DNA of 27,978 bases, from the NCBI GenBank assembly GCA_041637935.1, contig JBFKXV010000001.1:1-27978 (forward strand). The letters run 5' to 3'. Made by a program: the position numbers and the translations under genes. This stretch comes from Burkholderiales bacterium (GTDB taxonomy: Bacteria; Pseudomonadota; Gammaproteobacteria; Burkholderiales; Eutrophovitaceae). How positions within the stretch are numbered: the first letter of the stretch is position 1; each line of letters opens with the position of its first letter. The notes below the pieces were generated by a model. That model made no database searches and had not been told where the DNA came from. It saw only the letters and a program-made list of their open reading frames with translations. Shown here in pieces: positions 16,213-27,978 of the stretch.

Positions 16213-17409
16213 ATGGATATCAATGGGTTACCATCGCTGCCGAGCTGGATAGGCGGTGTGCTTGATTTGCCGTGGTGGGGCTACGTGGTCGTGGCGCTCG
16301 TGCTCACGCACATCACTATCGCCGCAGTCACCATCTACCTGCATCGGCATTCTGCGCACCGTGCGCTCGATCTGCACCCGTTGGTATCGCATTTCTTCCG
16401 CTTCTGGCTGTGGCTGACCACCGGCATGGTCACCAAAGAATGGACCGCCGTGCATCGCAAACACCACGCCAAATGCGAGACGGAAGAAGACCCGCACAGT
16501 CCCCAGGTGCTCGGATTGCGAAAGGTTTTGCTTGAAGGATCAGAACTTTACCGCAACGGGTCTATGGACCAGGAAACGCTGGATAAATACGGCCAGGGCA
16601 CGCCGAATGACTGGATAGAAAGGAATGTCTACAGCAAGACCGACATGGGCGGTGTCGGACTGATGCTGGTCATCAATACGGTGCTGTTCGGCCCGATCGG
16701 CTTGACCATCTGGGCGATTCAGATGCTGTGGATCCCGATCTGTGCCGCTGGCGTCATCAACGGTGTCGGACACTATCTCGGCTACCGCAATTTCCAGGTT
16801 GACGACGCCAGCACCAACATCGTGCCGTGGGGGATCATCATCGGCGGAGAGGAATTGCACAACAATCACCACGCCTATGCCTCGTCGGCGCGCCTTTCAT
16901 CGAAGTGGTACGAGTTCGATATCGGCTGGCTTTATATCAGACTGATGGAAATGGCCGGGTTGGCGAAAGTCAAGAAACTGGCGCCTCAGGTACGCATGGG
17001 AACTACGGCGCGCATCTGCGATGACCAGACGCTGCAGGCGGTCATTACGCACCGCTGGGATGTGCTGGCGCGGTTCTCACGCTCTGTGCGCAATACGTGT
17101 GCCGAGGAAATTCGCCGCATTGCCGCGAACAGTTCGGCTTCCGCACTCGACTTCCGGCGCTGGCTGAACCAGGACGAGCGTTTCATCAGTGAGCAACAGC
17201 TGGCTAGAGTATCCAAACTGGCAGAGAGGAGCCGTATCCTCAAGACAGTAGTGACCATGCGGCAGGAACTGATACAGCTTTGGCAGAGATCTTCGGCCAC
17301 CAAAGAACAGCTGGTCAAACAACTCGAGGACTGGTGTCGGCGCGCCGAGCTTTCCGGCATCGCCGCATTACAGGACTTCTCCAGAACGCTACGCAGTTAC
17401 GCCGTTTGA
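16213..17409 (+). CDS. desA: Membrane fatty-acid (acyl-CoA/lipid) desaturase, DesA type, with C-terminal extension
   Basis: Three His boxes HRHSAH, HRKHH and HNNHH; RBS AAGGA upstream. Confidence 0.88.
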   Translation: MDINGLPSLPSWIGGVLDLPWWGYVVVALVLTHITIAAVTIYLHRHSAHRALDLHPLVSHFFRFWLWLTTGMVTKEWTAVHRKHHAKCETEEDPHSPQVLGLRKVLLEGSELYRNGSMDQETLDKYGQGTPNDWIERNVYSKTDMGGVGLMLVINTVLFGPIGLTIWAIQMLWIPICAAGVINGVGHYLGYRNFQVDDASTNIVPWGIIIGGEELHNNHHAYASSARLSSKWYEFDIGWLYIRLMEMAGLAKVKKLAPQVRMGTTARICDDQTLQAVITHRWDVLARFSRSVRNTCAEEIRRIAANSSASALDFRRWLNQDERFISEQQLARVSKLAERSRILKTVVTMRQELIQLWQRSSATKEQLVKQLEDWCRRAELSGIAALQDFSRTLRSYAV

Positions 17410-18010: not shown

Positions 18011-18342
18011 GGAGTGCGGGCCCGGTCCGGCCACATCGCGACACACCGTCAGGCGCGTTGGGAATTTGCAGAAAAGACGGATTTGAGGAACTGCAGACAC
18101 ACCGGTAGAAACTTGCTCTGCCGAGCATTTTTATGTTGTACCGCCGTGCGCGTCTATAGTAATCTGGCGGGTGAGTCAGCAGACTCCAGAAGAAATAACG
18201 GCTCTGAAAAGCGTCAAAGCGTCGGATTCGTGAAACTATCCCGAGCGGGACATGACTAGGTCTCGGAGCCCAAAAGGCGAACGGGTTTCTCACGACGCGC
18301 TGCAGCCAATGATAAGACCACCATATGGAGGAAAGTCTAGCC

Positions 18343-19212
18343 ATGAAGAAGTCAACCATTTTTGCGGTGATACTCGGCCTCGCCTGTGCCATGGGCGCGT
18401 CGGTAGGTTCCGCACACAACACCAAGATCCAGGCCTATTGGGCGACCAGCGGCATGTTTGGCCCATTCAACATTCGCGGTCTGATCCCGGCACTGCCGGA
18501 AGATCGTGCCCGTGACATTACCATTCCGGTGCCAATGTGGATTATCAAGCACCCGAAAGGCGTTGTCGTTTTTGATACCGGTAACAACGTCGCCCTGAAT
18601 ACGGGCGGTTGCGCGTCACACTGGGGCGAAGGCAGCTGTGCGTTCCTCAAGCCCAGCCAGAAGCGCTCGGATGTGATCGACATGCAGCTGAAGAAGCTCG
18701 GCTTTTCCATCGATGACGTGGTCGCCGTGGTTACCTCTCACTCGCACCTGGATCACATCGGCAACATCGAGATGTTCCCCAACGCGCTGCACATCATCCA
18801 GAAGCAGGAGCTGTATCAGGCATGGTGGCCGGAAAAATTCCAGCGTGCTTCCGGCGCCCACATCATGGCCGACTATGATGATGCGCGTGACTTCAACTAC
18901 CTGGCACTGGAGGGTGATTACGACGTCTTTGGCGACGGTTCGATCGTTGTGCTGAGCGCTCCGGGTCATACCTTAGGCAACCAGTCGATGAAGCTCAAGT
19001 TCGCCAATGGTGATACCTTCATCATCGCGCAGGACGCGCTGTGGATGCGCGAGAACCTCGAAGGCTATCCGGCTGGCCTGAACTTCAGCGTCAAGACTTA
19101 TTTTGAAAGCGCCAACCGTCTGAAGTCCATGGCCGACCTCGAGGGCGGTGAGTTGTTCTTCGGTCACGACGAACAGCAGTGGAAGGAAAAAGGCAATCGC
19201 TGGTACAGATAA
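18343..19212 (+). CDS. Secreted/periplasmic N-acyl-homoserine-lactonase-family metallo-beta-lactamase-fold hydrolase
   Basis: GGAGG RBS, then [24 protein letters not shown] signal peptide; DTG, SHSHLDH, PGHT, QDA and FGHD metal ligands. Confidence 0.85.
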
Positions 19213-19243
19213 ACTGTAGGCGGTCACAAGCCGTAATTCAGTG

Positions 19244-19270
19244 AAAGGCCCTCCGCACGGGGGGCCTTTT
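19244..19270 (+). terminator. Intrinsic terminator after the lactonase gene
   Basis: AAAGGCCCTCC-gcac-GGGGGGCCTTTT hairpin with U tract. Confidence 0.8.
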
Positions 19271-19301
19271 CTATTCCGCGTTTTCCGTAACATCCAACAT
19301 C

Positions 19302-20255
19302 ATGTCAGCAGCTATTGAACTGCGGTCCGTGAGCAAGCGCTACGGTCCGAAGACGATCATTCACGATGTGTCTTTTTCTGTCGAATCCGGGGAGATCGTC
19401 GGCTTCCTTGGGCCCAACGGTGCCGGCAAGACGACAACCATGCGCATGATCGCCGGCTTCAGCACGCCCAGTTCCGGAACGATCAAAGTCGCCGGTCACG
19501 ACATGGTCAACGCGAATGAGCATGCGGCGGAAAAGATCGGTTACCTACCGGAGCACCCGCCACTGTATGACACGCTCGATGTCGAGCAGTACTTGCGTTT
19601 TGTCGCCAAGGTCAAAGGCGTTCCTGCGCGATCGATGGCAGACAATCTTGATCGCGTCATCACCGCCTGCCGTCTCGAGGCAGTGGTACGCCGCGAAATT
19701 TACAAACTGTCCAAAGGCTATCGACAGCGAACCGGGCTGGCGCAAGCGCTGCTGGGCAGCCCGGAAGTATTGTTGCTCGACGAGCCAACCGCCGGGCTCG
19801 ATCCGGGCCAGATCCAGGAAACCCGCGAAGTGATTTGTTCGTTCGGCGAAAAAAACGCAGTGCTGATCAGCACGCACATCCTTCCCGAAGTCACACTGAT
19901 CTGCAATCGCGTCGCCATCATTAACAACGGCAGGCTGCTGGCCATCGATTCGCCGAGCGGCCTGCAGCAGGCGTCGGAAAAGTCCAGCAGAGTAACCTTA
20001 CGTGTAGCAGGCTCCGAAAACGATGTGCGTCAGGAATTGCTCGCCATCGCCGGTGTCGAGTCAGTTGACATCAGCAGTGACGCTCAGGGAATCGCCAGTG
20101 TCGATTGCCACGTCGAAGCGCGTGAAGGCATCGAGGCGGCAATCGCAAAGGCCATGACTGCACGCTGGGACCTGTACCAACTGGAACGAGTGCATCCAAC
20201 ACTGGAGAACGTTTTCCTGCGCTACATCGGCGCACAGCAGCAGGAGGCAGCATGA
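19302..20255 (+). CDS. ABC-2/GldA-like ATP-binding protein
   Basis: GPNGAGKTT, GYLPEHPPLY, LSKGYRQR signature, LLDEPTAGLDP and STH. Confidence 0.92.
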   Translation: MSAAIELRSVSKRYGPKTIIHDVSFSVESGEIVGFLGPNGAGKTTTMRMIAGFSTPSSGTIKVAGHDMVNANEHAAEKIGYLPEHPPLYDTLDVEQYLRFVAKVKGVPARSMADNLDRVITACRLEAVVRREIYKLSKGYRQRTGLAQALLGSPEVLLLDEPTAGLDPGQIQETREVICSFGEKNAVLISTHILPEVTLICNRVAIINNGRLLAIDSPSGLQQASEKSSRVTLRVAGSENDVRQELLAIAGVESVDISSDAQGIASVDCHVEAREGIEAAIAKAMTARWDLYQLERVHPTLENVFLRYIGAQQQEAA

Positions 20256-20959
20256 ATCGCGTTATGGCGCTGTACGTAAAGGAGCTGTTCACCTACTTCC
20301 GTTCGCCAATCGCCTACTTCGTAGTCGCTGTTTTCCTGCTCGGCACCGGCTACTTCTTTCTGTATGAGGTTTTCCTGACCGGCACGGCGAGCATGAACGA
20401 GCCGTTCAAGAACATGGGTGTGCTGCTCTTGATTGTTGCTCCGATCATCACCATGCGCCAGTTTTCCTCTGAGTACACCGGGCGCACGATGGAACTGCTC
20501 AGTACACTGCCATTGCGTCCATGGCAGATTGTTCTCGGAAAATATTTGGGCGCAGTCACCATTCTCTTGCTCATGACATTGGGCACGGCGGTCAATCTCA
20601 TTCCGCTCTATCTGTACGGCTCGCCGGAAACGACAAATATTATCGCCGGCTACATCGGTTTTCTGTTGCTCGGCATGGCGTGTCTGGCGATTGGTCAGTT
20701 TTTCTCGGCGTTAACACACAACCAGGTGATCGCTGCGCTGATCACATTTCCGATTCTGCTCGCATTCTGGTTCGTCGGGCACCTGTACAGTTTTCAGTCG
20801 GCGGTGATCCTGCAAACGTTGTTCGGCTACCTTTCTTTCTCCCTTCACTTCGGGGATTTCATTGCCGGACTGATCCGCAGCGAGGCGGTCGTCTTTTATC
20901 TGGTTGTCACCGCGATCGCGTTGACCCTCAACGCCAGTTATCTGCAATGGCGCAGATGA
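20252..20959 (+). CDS. ABC-2/GldF-like permease
   Basis: KELFTYFRSPIAY, PIITMR, ELLSTLPL...IVLGKY and THNQVIAA; ATGA overlap with the ATPase. Confidence 0.9.
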   Translation: MNRVMALYVKELFTYFRSPIAYFVVAVFLLGTGYFFLYEVFLTGTASMNEPFKNMGVLLLIVAPIITMRQFSSEYTGRTMELLSTLPLRPWQIVLGKYLGAVTILLLMTLGTAVNLIPLYLYGSPETTNIIAGYIGFLLLGMACLAIGQFFSALTHNQVIAALITFPILLAFWFVGHLYSFQSAVILQTLFGYLSFSLHFGDFIAGLIRSEAVVFYLVVTAIALTLNASYLQWRR

Positions 20960-21026
20960 AAACCGGCGCAGATGAAAACCGGCGTAGATGAAAACCGGCG
21001 TAGATGAAAACCGGCGTAGATGAAAA
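20949..21026 (+). repeat. 16-bp tandem repeat x~4.9 (GGCGYAGATGAAAACC) spanning the permease stop and GldG start
   Basis: Units at 20949, 20965, 20981, 20997 and 21013; each contains ATGA. Confidence 0.95.
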
Positions 21027-22722
21027 TAGCGTAAAAGTGAATAGCCAGGATGAAATCAGCAGTGATAAAAATCGCTTCGAAAATGAAGCAGCTTCGGTAA
21101 CCATGGAACATTCATTTCGTTCGTTCTTGATCCTACTGGCCGGGCTGGCCTGCGTGGTCACCGCCATCGCGCTGGATGCGATCATCCTTGAAGGCGGTGT
21201 CTGGAATTTGCTGCTGGCAGCACTCGGCCTGGGATTAACCGGGGTCGGGCTTTACCAACTGCGTACCGAGCTGGCTAGTTTGGTACAACAGCGCCGGGGC
21301 GAGATTGCCCTGTTCACGATTGGCGTAATCGGCATTCTTGTGGTCATCGCATACTTTTCCACCCGCTATACTGTTCGCTTCGATCTGTCGGAGGCGAAAC
21401 TGCACTCACTGTCCGATCAGACCGTAACCATGCTGCAGAGGCTCGACAACCCGGTAGAGATCACCTTCTTTCATGATTCGGGAATGCGTGAAACGATTGA
21501 ACGCTATGAACTGATCGCCGCACAAACAGACAAGGTCACCGTCGAATTCTTTGATCCGATGGTGAATCCAGCTCAGGCACGCATGCGCGGTGTGCAGTTT
21601 CCGGGCACCGCGATCCTCAAAAGCGGTGATCGGGAAATGCAGGTCCATGGACCAGAGGAAACCGACATTGCTAACGCGGTTCTGCGCATCTCGCTCGGGA
21701 TGCAGCAGACAGCGTGCTTTCTTGACGGACATGGTGAAGCCGACCCATTCAGCATGGAGTCGCACGATCACCTCGAAGGTGCCGCCGGCCATTCGCACGG
21801 CGCGGGTACCAAGATCGTCGTTCACGAAACACACGGCATGGCAAAAGCCAGGCACGGCCTCGAGGCAATGAACTACGTGGTCGAGAAAACGGGATTGATG
21901 CGCAGCGACAAGTCTCTGTCGCATTGTGCGGTGCTTGTCATCGCGGGACCAAAAACAGCGTTGTTAGCCGAAGAAATCGAATCGGTCAGGAACTATCTCG
22001 ACCAAGGCGGCAATGTCTTTTTCATGCTGGATCCGTTCGTCGAAACCGGTCTGGAACCGGTCGTCAGCCAGTATGGCATCGTCGTAGACGACAACATCGT
22101 GCTCGATGAGCTGAGTCATTTCTGGGCGGATCCGTCTTCGCCGGCAGTAACCCAATACAATCGCCATCAGATCACGCGCGGCCTTCCGCTCACTTTTTTC
22201 CCCGGCGTGCGTTCATTGTCGCCAACGGCCACAAGAGTTCCCGGCACTTCGGTGGTACCGCTGATCAATACGTCGCGAAAGAGCTTTGGCGAAAGCAATC
22301 GGGATGAGGTTCGTTTCGAAGAGGGTGCCGATATGCCGGGACCGCTGACGGTGATGGTGGCATCGGCGCTGCGACCGGAACGGGTCGCGGAGGAGGCAGC
22401 GATGCTAGACGGACAGAACGAAAGCGAGCTCCCGTCGCCGGTCATCGAAGGCAAAGTCAAATCACGCATTGTGGTAATCGGGGATTCCGACTTCGCTACC
22501 AATTCATTCTTCCACATCCTCGGTAACGGTAATCTGTTTCTGAATACAGTCAACTATCTTGCGGAACAGGAAAACCTGATTGGCGTCGAGCCCCGCACCT
22601 ATGACCCGCCGCGGGTCAACCTGACCAACCGCCAGATGAAAGGCACCTTCCTGCTCTCGGTGGTGTTGATTCCCGCATTGCTCGCCATCATCGGTTTCGC
22701 CGTTTGGTGGAGACAGCGTTGA
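21004..22722 (+). CDS. GldG-like ABC transporter auxiliary membrane/periplasmic protein
   Basis: N-terminal TM helices, RFDLSE, CFLDGHGE, LVIAGPK, SRIVVIGDSDF, LFLNTVNYL and a C-terminal TM helix. Start ambiguous (21004, GTG 21037 or ATG 21103). Confidence 0.85.
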   Translation: MKTGVDENSVKVNSQDEISSDKNRFENEAASVTMEHSFRSFLILLAGLACVVTAIALDAIILEGGVWNLLLAALGLGLTGVGLYQLRTELASLVQQRRGEIALFTIGVIGILVVIAYFSTRYTVRFDLSEAKLHSLSDQTVTMLQRLDNPVEITFFHDSGMRETIERYELIAAQTDKVTVEFFDPMVNPAQARMRGVQFPGTAILKSGDREMQVHGPEETDIANAVLRISLGMQQTACFLDGHGEADPFSMESHDHLEGAAGHSHGAGTKIVVHETHGMAKARHGLEAMNYVVEKTGLMRSDKSLSHCAVLVIAGPKTALLAEEIESVRNYLDQGGNVFFMLDPFVETGLEPVVSQYGIVVDDNIVLDELSHFWADPSSPAVTQYNRHQITRGLPLTFFPGVRSLSPTATRVPGTSVVPLINTSRKSFGESNRDEVRFEEGADMPGPLTVMVASALRPERVAEEAAMLDGQNESELPSPVIEGKVKSRIVVIGDSDFATNSFFHILGNGNLFLNTVNYLAEQENLIGVEPRTYDPPRVNLTNRQMKGTFLLSVVLIPALLAIIGFAVWWRQR

Positions 22723-23321
22723 GCGCAACGAGGCACGGCCGTTCCAGGATCATCTGGAGTGTCCTGGCGGTGTTAGTCTTCATCGTCGCGGTGCTGGAAA
22801 TCCGTGATCGCTCATCGCGCCCTGAGGCCGAGGAGCCAACAGGTCCGAGCATGCTGATGCCGGCGCCAATGGAAGAGATCGGTGTAATCGAGATCGCTGT
22901 CGCTGGCAATTTGCACCGCTTCTCGCGCGATGAAAACAACGCATGGTTCTATCACGGCATTCATGCCGGTCCGCAAGCGGCACACGAGCATGTGCCCGAT
23001 CCGGTGATGTCCGAGAAAATCGCGAAATTCCTCGCCGGATTGGGACGCGCACGCATCGAACGGCGTTTCGAGTTGACCGATGACGACCCGTTCGGCGTCA
23101 CCAAACCGGAAATGATCATCATGGTGTACGTCTCGGACCTGGTGAAACCGACCATGCGCTATTCGGTTGGGGATTTGGCCCCGGATGAACTCAGCCGTTA
23201 TGTGCACATCGTCGGCGGATCGGAGGTTGTCTCAATCCCCGACTACCAGATTCGCAACCTTCTTGACTTGCTAAAGACCGTCACCGCTGAACCACTCCAG
23301 GCGCCCGCGCCGGCAGGCTGA
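22719..23321 (+). CDS. DUF4340-like membrane-anchored periplasmic protein
   Basis: TTG overlapping the GldG stop (TTGA) with GGAG RBS; single N-terminal TM helix; FGVTKP motif; typical fourth gene of Gld-like ABC operons. Confidence 0.65.
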   Translation: MSATRHGRSRIIWSVLAVLVFIVAVLEIRDRSSRPEAEEPTGPSMLMPAPMEEIGVIEIAVAGNLHRFSRDENNAWFYHGIHAGPQAAHEHVPDPVMSEKIAKFLAGLGRARIERRFELTDDDPFGVTKPEMIIMVYVSDLVKPTMRYSVGDLAPDELSRYVHIVGGSEVVSIPDYQIRNLLDLLKTVTAEPLQAPAPAG

Positions 23322-23372: not shown

Positions 23373-24047
23373 CTAAATCAATCCGCGCTCGGCAAACGAC
23401 ATCATGCCGCCGTGGCCAACGACGAAGTGATCGAGCACACGCACGTCGACCAGCGCGAGGGCTTGTTTCAACGCCTGGGTCAGGCTTTCGTCCGCTCGGC
23501 TCGGCTCGGCCACACCCGACGGATGGTTGTGGGCAAAGATGACCGACGCCGCGTTATGTCTCAACGCCTGCTTGACTACTTCACGCGGATAGACGCTGGT
23601 CTGCGTGAGCGTGCCGGAGAACAGTTCCTGGGCGGCAATAAGCCGGTTCTGCGCATCGAGAAACAGCCCGGTGAAGACTTCGACCGGCCGGTGTTCCAGC
23701 AACAGGCGCAGATATCGCCTGACCGCTTCGGGAGAACTGAGATTGTCCGAGCCGCGCATTTCCTGCGTCAGTGCGCGGCGCGCCAATTCAACCGCCGCTT
23801 GCAGCTGTATGTACTTTGCGTCTCCGAGCCCGTCGATGGCGGTAAATTCCGATCTCTCGGCTGCGGCAATCGCACCCACCGAACCGAAACGTTTGAGCAG
23901 CTCACGTCCGAGATCGACTGCGCTTTTGCCCTTGACGCCGGTGCGTAGAAATATCGCTACCAGTTCGGCATCCGCCAATGCCGCCGCCCCCCTGTTGAGT
24001 AGTTTCTCACGCGGCCGCTCGTCCGCCGGCAAATCCCGCAGCGCCAT
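23373..24047 (-). CDS. radC: RadC family JAB-domain protein
   Basis: [32 protein letters not shown] and VLDH motifs. Confidence 0.96.
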
Positions 24048-25921: not shown

Positions 25922-26413
25922 CTATTCCGGAAACACCAACTGTTGATTCGACTCGTCCTTGGCTGGATCGGGTATTTCCCCGGCAGCAATGCGGCGTTTC
26001 TCCTCCCAACGCATGAAAGTCAGCACGGCGAGTATTTCCTCGGCGGTCATCGTCGTACCGAACGCGCCCATGGTTCCGCCGAGTGAGCGATTCGGCAGGC
26101 CGCCGGCGATGACCCCATAGATCTCGGCGTTGGTATTACCGACGTAGGCGAACTTGCCGCAACTCAGGCATGGTCCCTTACCGCCATGGCCGTCACCGCC
26201 ATGGCAGAACGAGCAGCGCTGCGCATACTTGGCGCGGCCGAATTCGACTACCTTCATGTCGTTGGTCGGCACCTCCAGGTCGGACTCATTCGCCTTGTGC
26301 TGCGCCATTGCCGGTGTTGAGAGCAGCACACCCGTCATCAGGCCAACGGTCAAAACCGCCAGTGCGTAACCGGCCGCGCGAGCAACCGCCGTCTTAATCA
26401 AGTTGTCTAACAT
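25922..26413 (-). CDS. Periplasmic monoheme c-type cytochrome (probable electron acceptor of the PQQ dehydrogenase)
   Basis: Signal peptide ending PAMA, CSFCH heme motif and a distal Met candidate in GTMGAF. Confidence 0.88.
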   Translation of the reverse strand: MLDNLIKTAVARAAGYALAVLTVGLMTGVLLSTPAMAQHKANESDLEVPTNDMKVVEFGRAKYAQRCSFCHGGDGHGGKGPCLSCGKFAYVGNTNAEIYGVIAGGLPNRSLGGTMGAFGTTMTAEEILAVLTFMRWEEKRRIAAGEIPDPAKDESNQQLVFPE

Positions 26414-26436
26414 CTTTACGTTCCTCCACTCAATGC

Positions 26437-27279
26437 TTACGACGCGAAAGGCGGGTAAAACGGCACGCCGTAGCTTTCCACGATTTCCTTGATCTTGCCA
26501 TTATCGAGCAACTCCCGAATACCTTCGTTGATGAACTTCATCAACGACTTGTCGCGCTTCCGTACCAGATAATTGAGGTCCCATTGCTGGCCTTCCACGG
26601 GAACATAGTCTTTGGCCATTCGGAAAGTGGCTTCCGGGAATTTACGCTGGGCATTGGTCAGAACCGTCGCCCACACCAGCGCCGCATCGATCTCGCCTCT
26701 GGCCATTCCGCGCATGACACGCGGATTGTCGGGGTATAGCTCGCGCGCGGTGCCTTTCTCGTGAAGATACGCGTCGATCGGCGTCGACATTTGCACGCCT
26801 ATCTTCATTCCCGCCGCAGAAATCTCCTCGAGGGTCGTCATGTCAGCGGCCTTGTTCTGCACCACCAGGATATAGCCCATCCCCAGATAGGGATCGGTAA
26901 ATGCCAGCTGGCCCATCAGAATATCGTCATCACCGCTATCGGAGACACCGGCAAAAACGTCGCAGCGGCCCTTCATCATGGAATTACGCAAGGCACGCGA
27001 CATGCCGCCACGTGTGCCGGTATCGGCCCAATACATCTCCAGCTCCATACCGCCTCGCTTGGCGATTGCCTGCAGGATTTCAACATCGAAACCCGGTGGA
27101 TTTGCGTTGCGGGATGCATAGGGAAAGCCGTACGGATCAGCGCACGCAATCAACTTACCTTTTGCTTTCGATCTTTCCAGTACGTCGGCAGACTCCGACG
27201 CATCCTGTGCCTGGACCGCGGCGCTCGCAAAAAAAGCCATTGCTGCCGCCAGCCCGATTACCAAACGTTGCTTACTCAA
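26437..27279 (-). CDS. MxaJ/XoxJ-like periplasmic substrate-binding-fold protein
   Basis: TTG start after AGGAG; signal peptide; LIACADP...FP, GFDVEI, RCDV, FTDPY and AALVW, resembling the family-3 SBP/MoxJ type; adjacent to PQQ dehydrogenase and cytochrome c. Confidence 0.8.
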   Translation of the reverse strand: MSKQRLVIGLAAAMAFFASAAVQAQDASESADVLERSKAKGKLIACADPYGFPYASRNANPPGFDVEILQAIAKRGGMELEMYWADTGTRGGMSRALRNSMMKGRCDVFAGVSDSGDDDILMGQLAFTDPYLGMGYILVVQNKAADMTTLEEISAAGMKIGVQMSTPIDAYLHEKGTARELYPDNPRVMRGMARGEIDAALVWATVLTNAQRKFPEATFRMAKDYVPVEGQQWDLNYLVRKRDKSLMKFINEGIRELLDNGKIKEIVESYGVPFYPPFAS

Positions 27280-27380
27280 GATTCTCTCCTCAGGCGCGTT
27301 ATTTAGTTTCCGTTGGTCTAATGATCCCCAAACGCGCGCCAAGTTCCTCTGGATGACAGCAGCGGAGCACTGCTACACAC

Positions 27381-27413
27381 AAAAAACAAGGGAGGGCGCC
27401 TCACGCCCCCCCT
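27381..27413 (-). terminator. Intrinsic terminator downstream of the PQQ dehydrogenase
   Basis: 10-bp GC-rich stem (one G-U on the minus strand) at 27389-27413 followed by TGTTTTTT. Confidence 0.75.
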
Positions 27414-27459
27414 CGTCATCACTGCATAGTGCGTCTACTTCTTGCGGTATTCCCGGTGA

Positions 27460-27978
27460 TCAATCAACCGTGAAGACCATCAGACCGCCACCCTTGGTGT
27501 GGGTCTTCAGGAAGTTCGAATAGTACAGCGGCCAGATACCGCCACCGCCAGCACCGTAGACGATCGCGACATATTGCTTGCCTTCGGCCGTGTAGGTCGT
27601 CGGGTTGCCGTGAATGCCGGAGCCGGTGTTGAACGACCACAGATGCTCGCCGGTTTCGTCGTTAACGGCGTTGAAGCGCCCGTCCGGATCGCCGTAGAAG
27701 GCAAGTCCGCCAGCCGTGGCCAGCAAGCCGCTGGTCGCCGGCCAGCTCTGCGACTTGGCCCAGACGCGTTTGCCGGTCGCGCCGTCGTAGGCCTGGATCT
27801 GGCCCGCGCCGGCGTTGAAGGTAATCACCTTGGCACCGAGATACCACTCACCACGCTTCCATTCCATCTTCTTGGCCTGGAGGTCCATGGTGAAGTCGTA
27901 AACCGGTACGTAGGTCATCTTGGTGCGGTGGCTGTAAGCCATCGGGTGCCACTCTTTACCACCGTCGAGCGACGGGGC
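27460..27978 (-). CDS. PQQ-dependent dehydrogenase, methanol/ethanol family, C-terminal part (runs off window)
   Basis: Open frame to window edge: APSLDGGKEWHPMAYS...AYDGATGKRVW, GLLATAGGLAFYG, AVNDETGEHLWSFNTGSG and GKQYVAI beta-propeller Trp-docking repeats. Confidence 0.9.
   Translation of the reverse strand, partial: APSLDGGKEWHPMAYSHRTKMTYVPVYDFTMDLQAKKMEWKRGEWYLGAKVITFNAGAGQIQAYDGATGKRVWAKSQSWPATSGLLATAGGLAFYGDPDGRFNAVNDETGEHLWSFNTGSGIHGNPTTYTAEGKQYVAIVYGAGGGGIWPLYYSNFLKTHTKGGGLMVFTVD

Follow-up and report, generated by a model that had tools for sequence, protein, structure and literature searches.

The NosDFY-NosL machinery, in which periplasmic accessory proteins assist an ATPase and a permease of the ABC-2 type (ABC, ATP-binding cassette) and the genes lie with that of a periplasmic metalloenzyme, delivers copper to the periplasmic nitrous oxide reductase instead of pumping a classical substrate (PMC8457098). 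A comparable logic can tentatively be read in five intact plus-strand open reading frames (ORFs) lying between rpmB and radC at 18343-23321 of a 27,978-bp contig from a betaproteobacterial metagenome-assembled genome (MAG; assembly 87% complete, 589 contigs), the entire contig being the window analysed here. These encode an exported hydrolase of the metallo-beta-lactamase (MBL) fold resembling the N-acyl homoserine lactone (AHL) lactonases, a GldA-like ATPase, a GldF-like permease, a GldG-like protein and a short DUF4340-like protein. The nearest named relatives of the host are Burkholderiales MAGs, and the metagenome runs containing this DNA are marine, mangrove, estuary and sediment ones.

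The accessory proteins of the cassette are of the GldG/GIFT and DUF4340 types and so are unrelated to the beta-helix NosD and the lipoprotein NosL, for which no Pfam matches were found among the cassette proteins, and the likeness to NosDFY is one of logic only. The prospective ligands here are His, Asp and Glu in place of Cys and Met, the usual ligands at Cu(I) sites, and the proposed client is a di-metal hydrolase and not a copper enzyme. PF12679, which the permease matches, is presumably the Pfam ABC-2 family of NosY. A closer relationship is seen with GldA, GldF and GldG of Flavobacterium johnsoniae, whose three-component architecture and Pfam domains match and whose NCBIfam models are the best matches for all three proteins. 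However none of the three proteins comes near the equivalog cut-off of its model (TIGR03522, TIGR03518, TIGR03521), the host is a betaproteobacterium, and the GldG-like protein differs in its His-cluster insertion, its extra N-terminal helices and its obligate linkage to MBL and DUF4340 genes. Bacteria that do not glide commonly have GldAFG-like ABC systems, for which to our knowledge no substrate or partner has been named; equally, we know of no lactonase with a dedicated ABC system.

All parts of the module come from known families and the logic proposed for it has a precedent, the module itself being undescribed: full-text literature searches (GldG with DUF4340; lactonase with HupE, ABC or gliding; Pfam and COG identifiers) returned no description of it.

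Linkage of the hydrolase and transporter genes

That the MBL gene belongs with the ABC genes is best seen from surveys made from both sides of the cassette. Among 185,579 species genomes the 80 best relatives of the MBL protein are 60-92% identical to it and belong to Burkholderiales, Alphaproteobacteria (Thalassobaculaceae, Rhodospirillales), Rokubacteria/Methylomirabilota, Entotheonella/Tectimicrobiota and Vicinamibacterales (Acidobacteria). In 77 of these loci, which span at least five phyla and have unrelated flanks, ATPase, permease and GldG genes come next after the MBL gene, usually with a DUF4340 gene behind them. The distance from MBL to ATPase gene in the 77 is about 60-250 bp, with some 2.3-2.7 kb inserted in two (L073, L124). 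The three loci without ABC genes consist of two that end at a contig end and a third that is an extra MBL copy in a MAG which also has a full cassette. From the ABC side, the 80 best GldG relatives in JGI metagenomes included 50 with at least 2.65 kb of sequence upstream, and the MBL gene is there in all 50, none having the room for it and lacking it. The earlier note on this DNA, which proposed a dedicated unit of lactonase and Gld-like ABC genes, held that a failure of the two to be co-conserved would count against it; looked at from both directions the linkage is near complete, and this core proposal is supported by both surveys as well as by the gene order of a second cassette.

This second, paralogous cassette (MBL 35-39% and GldG 32-36% identical) keeps the same gene order and stands in tandem with the first in some genomes, while in a complete 5.4-Mb genome of another family (G282) it occurs alone, as six genes. 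The order ATPase-permease-GldG is kept in all relatives. Across 61 related genomes the MBL gene and the cassette-type GldG gene were found or missed together, bar contig ends and incomplete genomes: the one-sided misses are G005, whose contig breaks off beside the GldG gene, and G026, which is 75% complete, and neither gene was found in G004 and G013. Pairwise distances of the MBL and GldG proteins co-vary (r = 0.64, Mantel 0 of 999). The family is large, at least 1068 clusters at 90% identity, and all its named carriers are MAGs.

A GldAFG-like ABC system is present in 45 of the 61 related genomes. The generic form of the operon is ubiquitous, and the examples compared, including a second operon in this genome, are without an MBL gene. 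The operon in question (L058, at G000:C20:1975-4996) serves as an internal control, with a GldG-like protein 26% identical to that of the cassette and without the His insertion, and with no MBL gene in the 12 kb fetched.

Within the family of the host the whole neighbourhood is syntenic (DUF3108-rsmB-desaturase-rpmB, cassette, radC-coaBC-dut), which by itself could be plain inheritance; since the cassette also recurs between unrelated flanks in several phyla, inheritance is ruled out as the explanation. Taken together the gene-neighbourhood evidence strongly supports the five genes forming one functional unit, and excludes chance as the reason for their proximity.

The individual features are collected in Table 1. 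The co-oriented five-gene cassette headed by a signal-peptide MBL gene was correctly described in the earlier note, with all ORFs intact and on one strand, and its coordinates and gene calls, the MBL start at M7 included, stand apart from the junction of the permease and GldG-like genes.

Table 1. Features of the cassette and its borders, in window coordinates
Feature	Position	Strand	Remarks
rpmB	ends ~17945	minus	
Promoter-like block and ~180-nt 5' leader, 5' of the MBL gene	18124..18342	+	TATAGT at 18155-18160; from alignment
Sec-exported AHL-lactonase-like MBL-fold di-metal hydrolase	18343..19212	+	289-aa precursor
Intrinsic-terminator-type hairpin	19243..19277	+	stem at 19243-19270, then U-tract
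ABC ATPase, GldA/DrrA-like	19302..20255	+	DrrA-type C-terminal domain
ABC-2 permease, GldF/NosY-like	20252..20959	+	six predicted transmembrane helices
16-bp tandem repeat, permease/GldG junction	20949..21026	+	
GldG-like membrane-anchored periplasmic accessory protein	21103..22722	+	ORF open from 21004
His-cluster insertion of the GldG-like protein, DPFSMESHDHLEGAAGHSHGAGTKIVVHETHG	21730..21834	+	directly after GHGE
Short DUF4340-like protein	22704..23321	+	N-terminal transmembrane anchor and periplasmic beta-rich domain
His loop of the DUF4340-like protein (HRF...WFYHGIH...HEH)	22914..22991	+	
radC	23373-24047	minus	

The exported hydrolase

The MBL protein is made as a precursor with a Sec-type signal, the mature part starting HN after the predicted cleavage, and signal peptides are found in all 15 aligned orthologues and paralogues. 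A Cys in the signal peptide is not conserved across orthologues, and so a lipoprotein identity was rejected and the enzyme is taken to be a soluble periplasmic protein. Because the signal is of the Sec and not the Tat type, the enzyme must acquire its metals in the periplasm. It matches Lactamase_B (PF00753, E 5e-13) and has the complete ligand set HxHxDH...H...D...H, the residues H133, H135, D137, H138, H209, D231 and H275 being invariant in 15 sequences and corresponding to those that bind the two metals in AHL lactonases.

Its closest solved relatives are the AHL lactonase 9kho (E 2e-30) and then AiiA, GcL and 4-pyridoxolactonase, the AHL-lactonase matches in the PDB running from E 2e-30 to 1e-19 at about 30% identity. 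With the AHL lactonases (AiiA, AttM/AiiB, GcL and the MomL/MzmL group) it has the MBL fold and the full ligand set in common, and some of these also carry signal peptides. However it scores under every NCBIfam equivalog cut-off for AHL lactonases (AttM, the best NCBIfam match, 159.7 against 390 bits; AiiA, 106 against 375; AhlS, 91.1 against 475; AidB, 21.4 against 360), and at the position of AiiA Tyr194 (D-x-x-Y) no Tyr is found in the window protein or in any cassette-1 orthologue, all of which read DA[LI]W. In the alignment with 9kho, DAAY of the lactonase is set against DALW. The Tyr194 side chain we take to be in contact with the lactone in AiiA structures. The cassette-2 paralogues read DNVY there, and cassette-1 proteins carry an additional Cys pair. 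Given the sub-cut-off scores and the Trp at the Tyr194 position the name can be lactonase-like only: the enzyme is outside every curated lactonase family and its lactonase activity is putative. In databases its relatives are named only 'N-acyl homoserine lactonase family protein' or 'MBL fold metallo-hydrolase'.

Export of such an enzyme is not in itself new. The general statement in the earlier note that AHL lactonases are cytoplasmic was too broad, as MBL lactonases with an export signal are known in the MomL/MzmL clade (PMC11112094).

In Entotheonella/Tectimicrobiota loci two or three tandem exported MBL copies (55-62% identical to that of the window) precede a single ABC set (L101:8001-10032, L102:8001-10845, L124:8001-10846, L135:1238-3092).

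The ABC motor and its His-rich partners

The ATPase (PF00005, E 4e-32) scores 267.1 bits on the GldA model TIGR03522, below the cut-off of 402.6, and reaches 211 bits with the DrrA model. Its sequence shows a Walker A motif (GPNGAGKTT), the ABC signature (LSKGYRQR) and a Walker B motif (LLLDEPT). Its identity as the ABC protein of a PQQ system (TIGR03864) was rejected at 155 bits against a 302-bit cut-off. The permease matches PF12698 and PF12679 above their cut-offs and the GldF model TIGR03518 at 117.9 bits, below the 288.5 needed.

The earlier note described the ABC genes as joined by overlapping stop and start codons, and this holds for ATPase and permease (4 bp, ATGA) and for the GldG-like and DUF4340-like genes (19 nt, the latter gene having a TTG start) but not for permease and GldG-like genes, which lie 45-143 nt apart. 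At that junction a 16-bp tandem repeat (4.9 copies of GGCGTAGATGAAAACC, 98% matches) begins in the final permease codons and yields short ATGA-chained mini-ORFs, and it lengthens the GldG ORF upstream to an ATG at 21004, which amounts to an artificial N-terminal extension. Since the matches of relatives begin near residue 30 of this long ORF, the start is placed at M34 (21103), the position at which close orthologues read MEHSF; the residue numbers of the His cluster below are counted from this M34.

The GldG-like protein contains DUF7088 and ABC_transp_aux domains (E 1e-21) and scores 51.4 bits on the GldG model TIGR03521, below its cut-off of 389.85; against the PDB only a weak match to the GIFT domain of IFT52 is seen. 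It has three N-terminal helices and one C-terminal transmembrane helix with the positive residues inside, and the large domain and its His loop are therefore periplasmic. In the MBL-linked forms the insertion has the consensus DPFSxESHDHxEGxxGHSHGxGxxxVxHExHGMAKA, with seven conserved His in 35 residues: in 32 sequences drawn from several phyla, H210, H221, H223, H230, H232 and H244 never vary and H241 is kept in more than 90%. The GldG protein of cassette 2 carries the same insertion, as FEFHTHxEGxxGHSH...GHG, and it was not found in the nine MBL-less GldG-like proteins compared. The check on whether a His-rich GldG accompanies signal-peptide lactonases, which the earlier note had suggested, thus gave a clear association of the cluster with the MBL-linked form.

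The DUF4340-like protein of the window reaches 19.8 bits (E 1e-3) on PF14238, covering about half of the model and falling short of the 25-bit gathering cut-off, and 23 of 26 orthologues match the same family at E <= 0.01, the best at 1.2e-7. Its AlphaFold2 model is confident over the beta-rich domain (predicted local distance difference test score, pLDDT, 86.7), and Foldseek found no PDB structure matching this fold at E <= 0.001. In its loop W81, H84 and H96 are invariant in 26 sequences and H71 and H94 are kept in at least 90%. One alphaproteobacterial locus (L084) has this loop expanded into a GHSHGGDGHGHSHG run, a GHSHG expansion.

A sixth gene in related cassettes

Downstream of many cassettes lies a gene for a HupE/UreJ-2 permease (PF13795, E 3e-46), seen in 29 of 80 genome loci, in about 45 of 80 metagenome loci and in cassette 2. 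It encodes a signal peptide, His at the N-terminus after cleavage, a periplasmic domain and the PF13795 membrane domain, and this is the layout of Ang-1, the protein of anglerase-HupE/UreJ-2 architecture that binds Cu2+ at 74 nM and Ni2+ at 220 nM in vitro (Franco Cairo et al. 2025, PMC12537917). ABC or lactonase/MBL neighbours go unmentioned in that work, which proposes Ang-type HupE/UreJ-2 proteins as metal catchers. Set against this likeness, the N-terminal domain of the cassette proteins matches neither the solved Ang-1 structure nor any PDB chain by sequence, and the gene is not in the window, where only 51 bp separate the DUF4340-like stop (23321) from radC (23373).

The hairpin after the hydrolase gene

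The terminator-like hairpin that the earlier note placed between the MBL and ATPase genes is real, strong and conserved in position. The 89-nt spacer has a minimum free energy of -31.6 kcal/mol (z -3.4), and its hairpin consists of a 12-bp GC-rich stem with a GCAC loop followed by UCUAUU. Since 74 of 76 loci from the various phyla have a hairpin of -18 kcal/mol or lower in this spacer, as against just 10 of 76 shuffled spacers, it is a conserved feature of the module. Hairpins occur after the binding-protein genes of ABC importer operons, and by that analogy the hairpin here plausibly raises the ratio of enzyme to transporter; that termination is 'leaky', as the earlier note had it, is an assumption.

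A possible mechanism and its alternatives

Three independent features point to a divalent metal being handled at the periplasmic face, namely the His clusters of the linked GldG form, the His loop of the DUF4340-like protein and the recurrent metal-permease gene. The presence of His, Asp and Glu without Cys or Met argues against Cu(I) and fits Zn2+, Ni2+, Co2+ or Cu2+. Tentatively, and with the balance tipped slightly against it, the ABC-2 motor and its two accessory proteins can be proposed to supply metal to the di-metal site of the Sec-exported enzyme or to maintain that site. In such a scheme the AHL-lactonase-like binuclear-metal hydrolase would fold in the periplasm, and the motor of GldA-like ATPase and GldF-like permease would carry the membrane-anchored GldG-like and DUF4340-like partners, whose flexible His clusters would bind divalent metal, Zn2+ being the most natural candidate and Ni2+, Co2+ or Cu2+ possible. 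ATP hydrolysis would drive metal capture and hand-over at the periplasmic face, and the metal would most likely go to the di-metal site of the enzyme, to fill it or keep it filled, following the NosDFY/NosL logic. The hairpin would terminate or stabilise part of the transcripts and so leave the soluble enzyme in excess over the membrane machine, and in many relatives the HupE/UreJ-2 permease with its N-terminal His1 domain would complete the module, the lineage of the window having presumably lost it. What we infer in this scheme is that metal is bound, which way it is transferred, that the enzyme receives it and that termination is partial.

Alongside NosDFY for copper, CcmAB is counted as an ABC-2 cofactor-loading machine, for haem. 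It is a doubtful extension that the MBL-linked His-GldG ABC systems are a third such class, in which His loops, powered by ATP hydrolysis, would insert one particular divalent metal into a Sec-exported binuclear hydrolase that would otherwise not be correctly metallated.

Several points weigh against metal loading of the enzyme. The His loops are predicted to be disordered, the GldG-like insertion being a low-confidence flexible loop (pLDDT <50 in the AlphaFold2 model) on an otherwise folded periplasmic domain, and the capacity to bind metal is read from composition alone. ABC-2 and DrrA-like pumps typically export organic compounds. Searches upstream of the cassette for a metal-responsive operator (Zur-, NikR- or Fur-like) and for riboswitches found neither. 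The window has no HupE/UreJ-2 gene, and a search of the 87%-complete genome (G000) for PF13795 was negative as well. Further, the exported MBL lactonases MomL and MzmL are reported with no mention of such a machine (PMC11112094).

The same His clusters and HupE/UreJ-2 linkage would serve equally for a metal acquisition or homeostasis machine to which the enzyme is an accessory, a reading that seems rather unlikely. The His-rich ABC complex, with HupE/UreJ-2 where present, would then move metal across or along the inner membrane, and the MBL protein would help by releasing metal in the periplasm through cleavage of an ester- or lactone-containing chelator or metallophore, or by buffering it. 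The proposed role of Ang-type HupE/UreJ-2 proteins as metal catchers (PMC12537917) agrees with this, and the tandem MBL copies of the Entotheonella loci are as expected of a substrate-facing enzyme family. However neither a metallophore biosynthesis gene nor a TonB-receptor gene is conserved near the cassette, and in the lineage of the window the module works without HupE/UreJ-2; nor are ABC-2 folds generally known as importers.

Less likely again is a cassette for processing of, or resistance to, small molecules, in which a DrrA/GldA-like pump would export a lactone, signal or antibiotic, the enzyme would hydrolyse the exported compound or incoming lactones (quorum quenching in the periplasm, or detoxification), and the His loops would be structural or substrate-binding. 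Pairing of a hydrolase with a pump is a common resistance layout, and the DrrA score and DrrA-type C-terminal domain of the ATPase fit it, as does the AHL-lactonase character of the enzyme's closest solved relatives. What it leaves unexplained is why seven conserved His mark exactly the MBL-linked GldG forms and why a metal permease gene so frequently follows; the enzyme moreover lies far under all AHL-lactonase cut-offs and has Trp for Tyr194, and no luxI/luxR-type or biosynthetic genes are conserved nearby. Lastly, the strong terminator and the shared synteny from rpmB through the cassette to radC-coaBC-dut inside the family could suggest separate transcription units without any functional link, kept together by inheritance of the rpmB-radC region, but this is most improbable and is already contradicted by the surveys, as the two are found together again between unrelated flanks, across several phyla, in the divergent paralogous cassette and in 50/50 metagenome loci, and both partners are missed together in G004 and G013.

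Were loading of the exported enzyme to prove correct, this would be the first defined client for the orphan GldAFG-like class and would suggest for it a general role as periplasmic assembly motors and not pumps. The subclass offers an obligate and easily assayed partner enzyme, a His-cluster signature against the generic form and a frequent metal-permease neighbour. The module also has a bearing on how a metalloenzyme exported by Sec comes by its correct metal once in the periplasm. It is carried by uncultured lineages of soil, sediment and sponges (Rokubacteria, Entotheonella, sediment Burkholderiales), in which the family is abundant.

The upstream region and neighbouring genes

Alignment of the rpmB-MBL intergenic region within the genus shows a conserved block GCATTTTTnTGTTGTnCC...TCTATAGTA together with conserved leader segments, from which we infer that the stretch before the MBL gene acts as promoter and leader. 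Rfam gave no family in the window or in 11 related loci. A riboswitch in the 5' leader was considered and dropped, the leader of a Burkholderiales subgroup having one conserved long-range helix without compensatory changes. In eight loci (L072, L077, L085, L089, L098, L119, L128, L138) a conserved promoter, TTGACG-N17-CACACT, lies about 150-180 nt before the MBL ATG; the conserved 5' leader downstream of it may form a long-range helix (GTATCGC/GCGGTGC), again with no compensatory changes and no Rfam match.

Upstream of the MBL gene of the window the inverted repeats amount to two short palindromes, which overlap each other immediately ahead of the start codon. The near-palindrome CCACCATATGGAGG at 18318-18331 spans the MBL Shine-Dalgarno sequence and may sequester it; an ACCAYC-like motif precedes the Shine-Dalgarno sequence also in other promoter classes of the cassette. 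Eleven Burkholderiales loci have a 26-bp palindrome, TCWTACGAA-N8-TTCGTAWGA, 226-264 nt 5' of the MBL start (L077:7775-7800, L098:7746-7771, L119:3906-3931 and eight more). Of its 12 matches in about 1.1 Mb, 11 lie at these positions, and in those loci a dedicated regulator probably binds it as its operator; it is not present in the window and matches no recognised box.

On the minus strand after dut, genes for a cytochrome c and a family-3 solute-binding protein (25922-27978) are syntenic inside the family and do not travel with the cassette in other phyla. Candidate PQQ-dehydrogenase genes at the window end were likewise set aside as cassette members, being syntenic only inside the family and not in other phyla. 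On the other side of rpmB a 398-aa ORF (16213-17409) has an N-terminal fatty-acid desaturase domain and a C-terminal third that matches the Pfam model of the ISL3 transposase (E 9e-9); as it is 60-92% identical at full length in all relatives, it is a real conserved gene and not a fusion with an insertion sequence.

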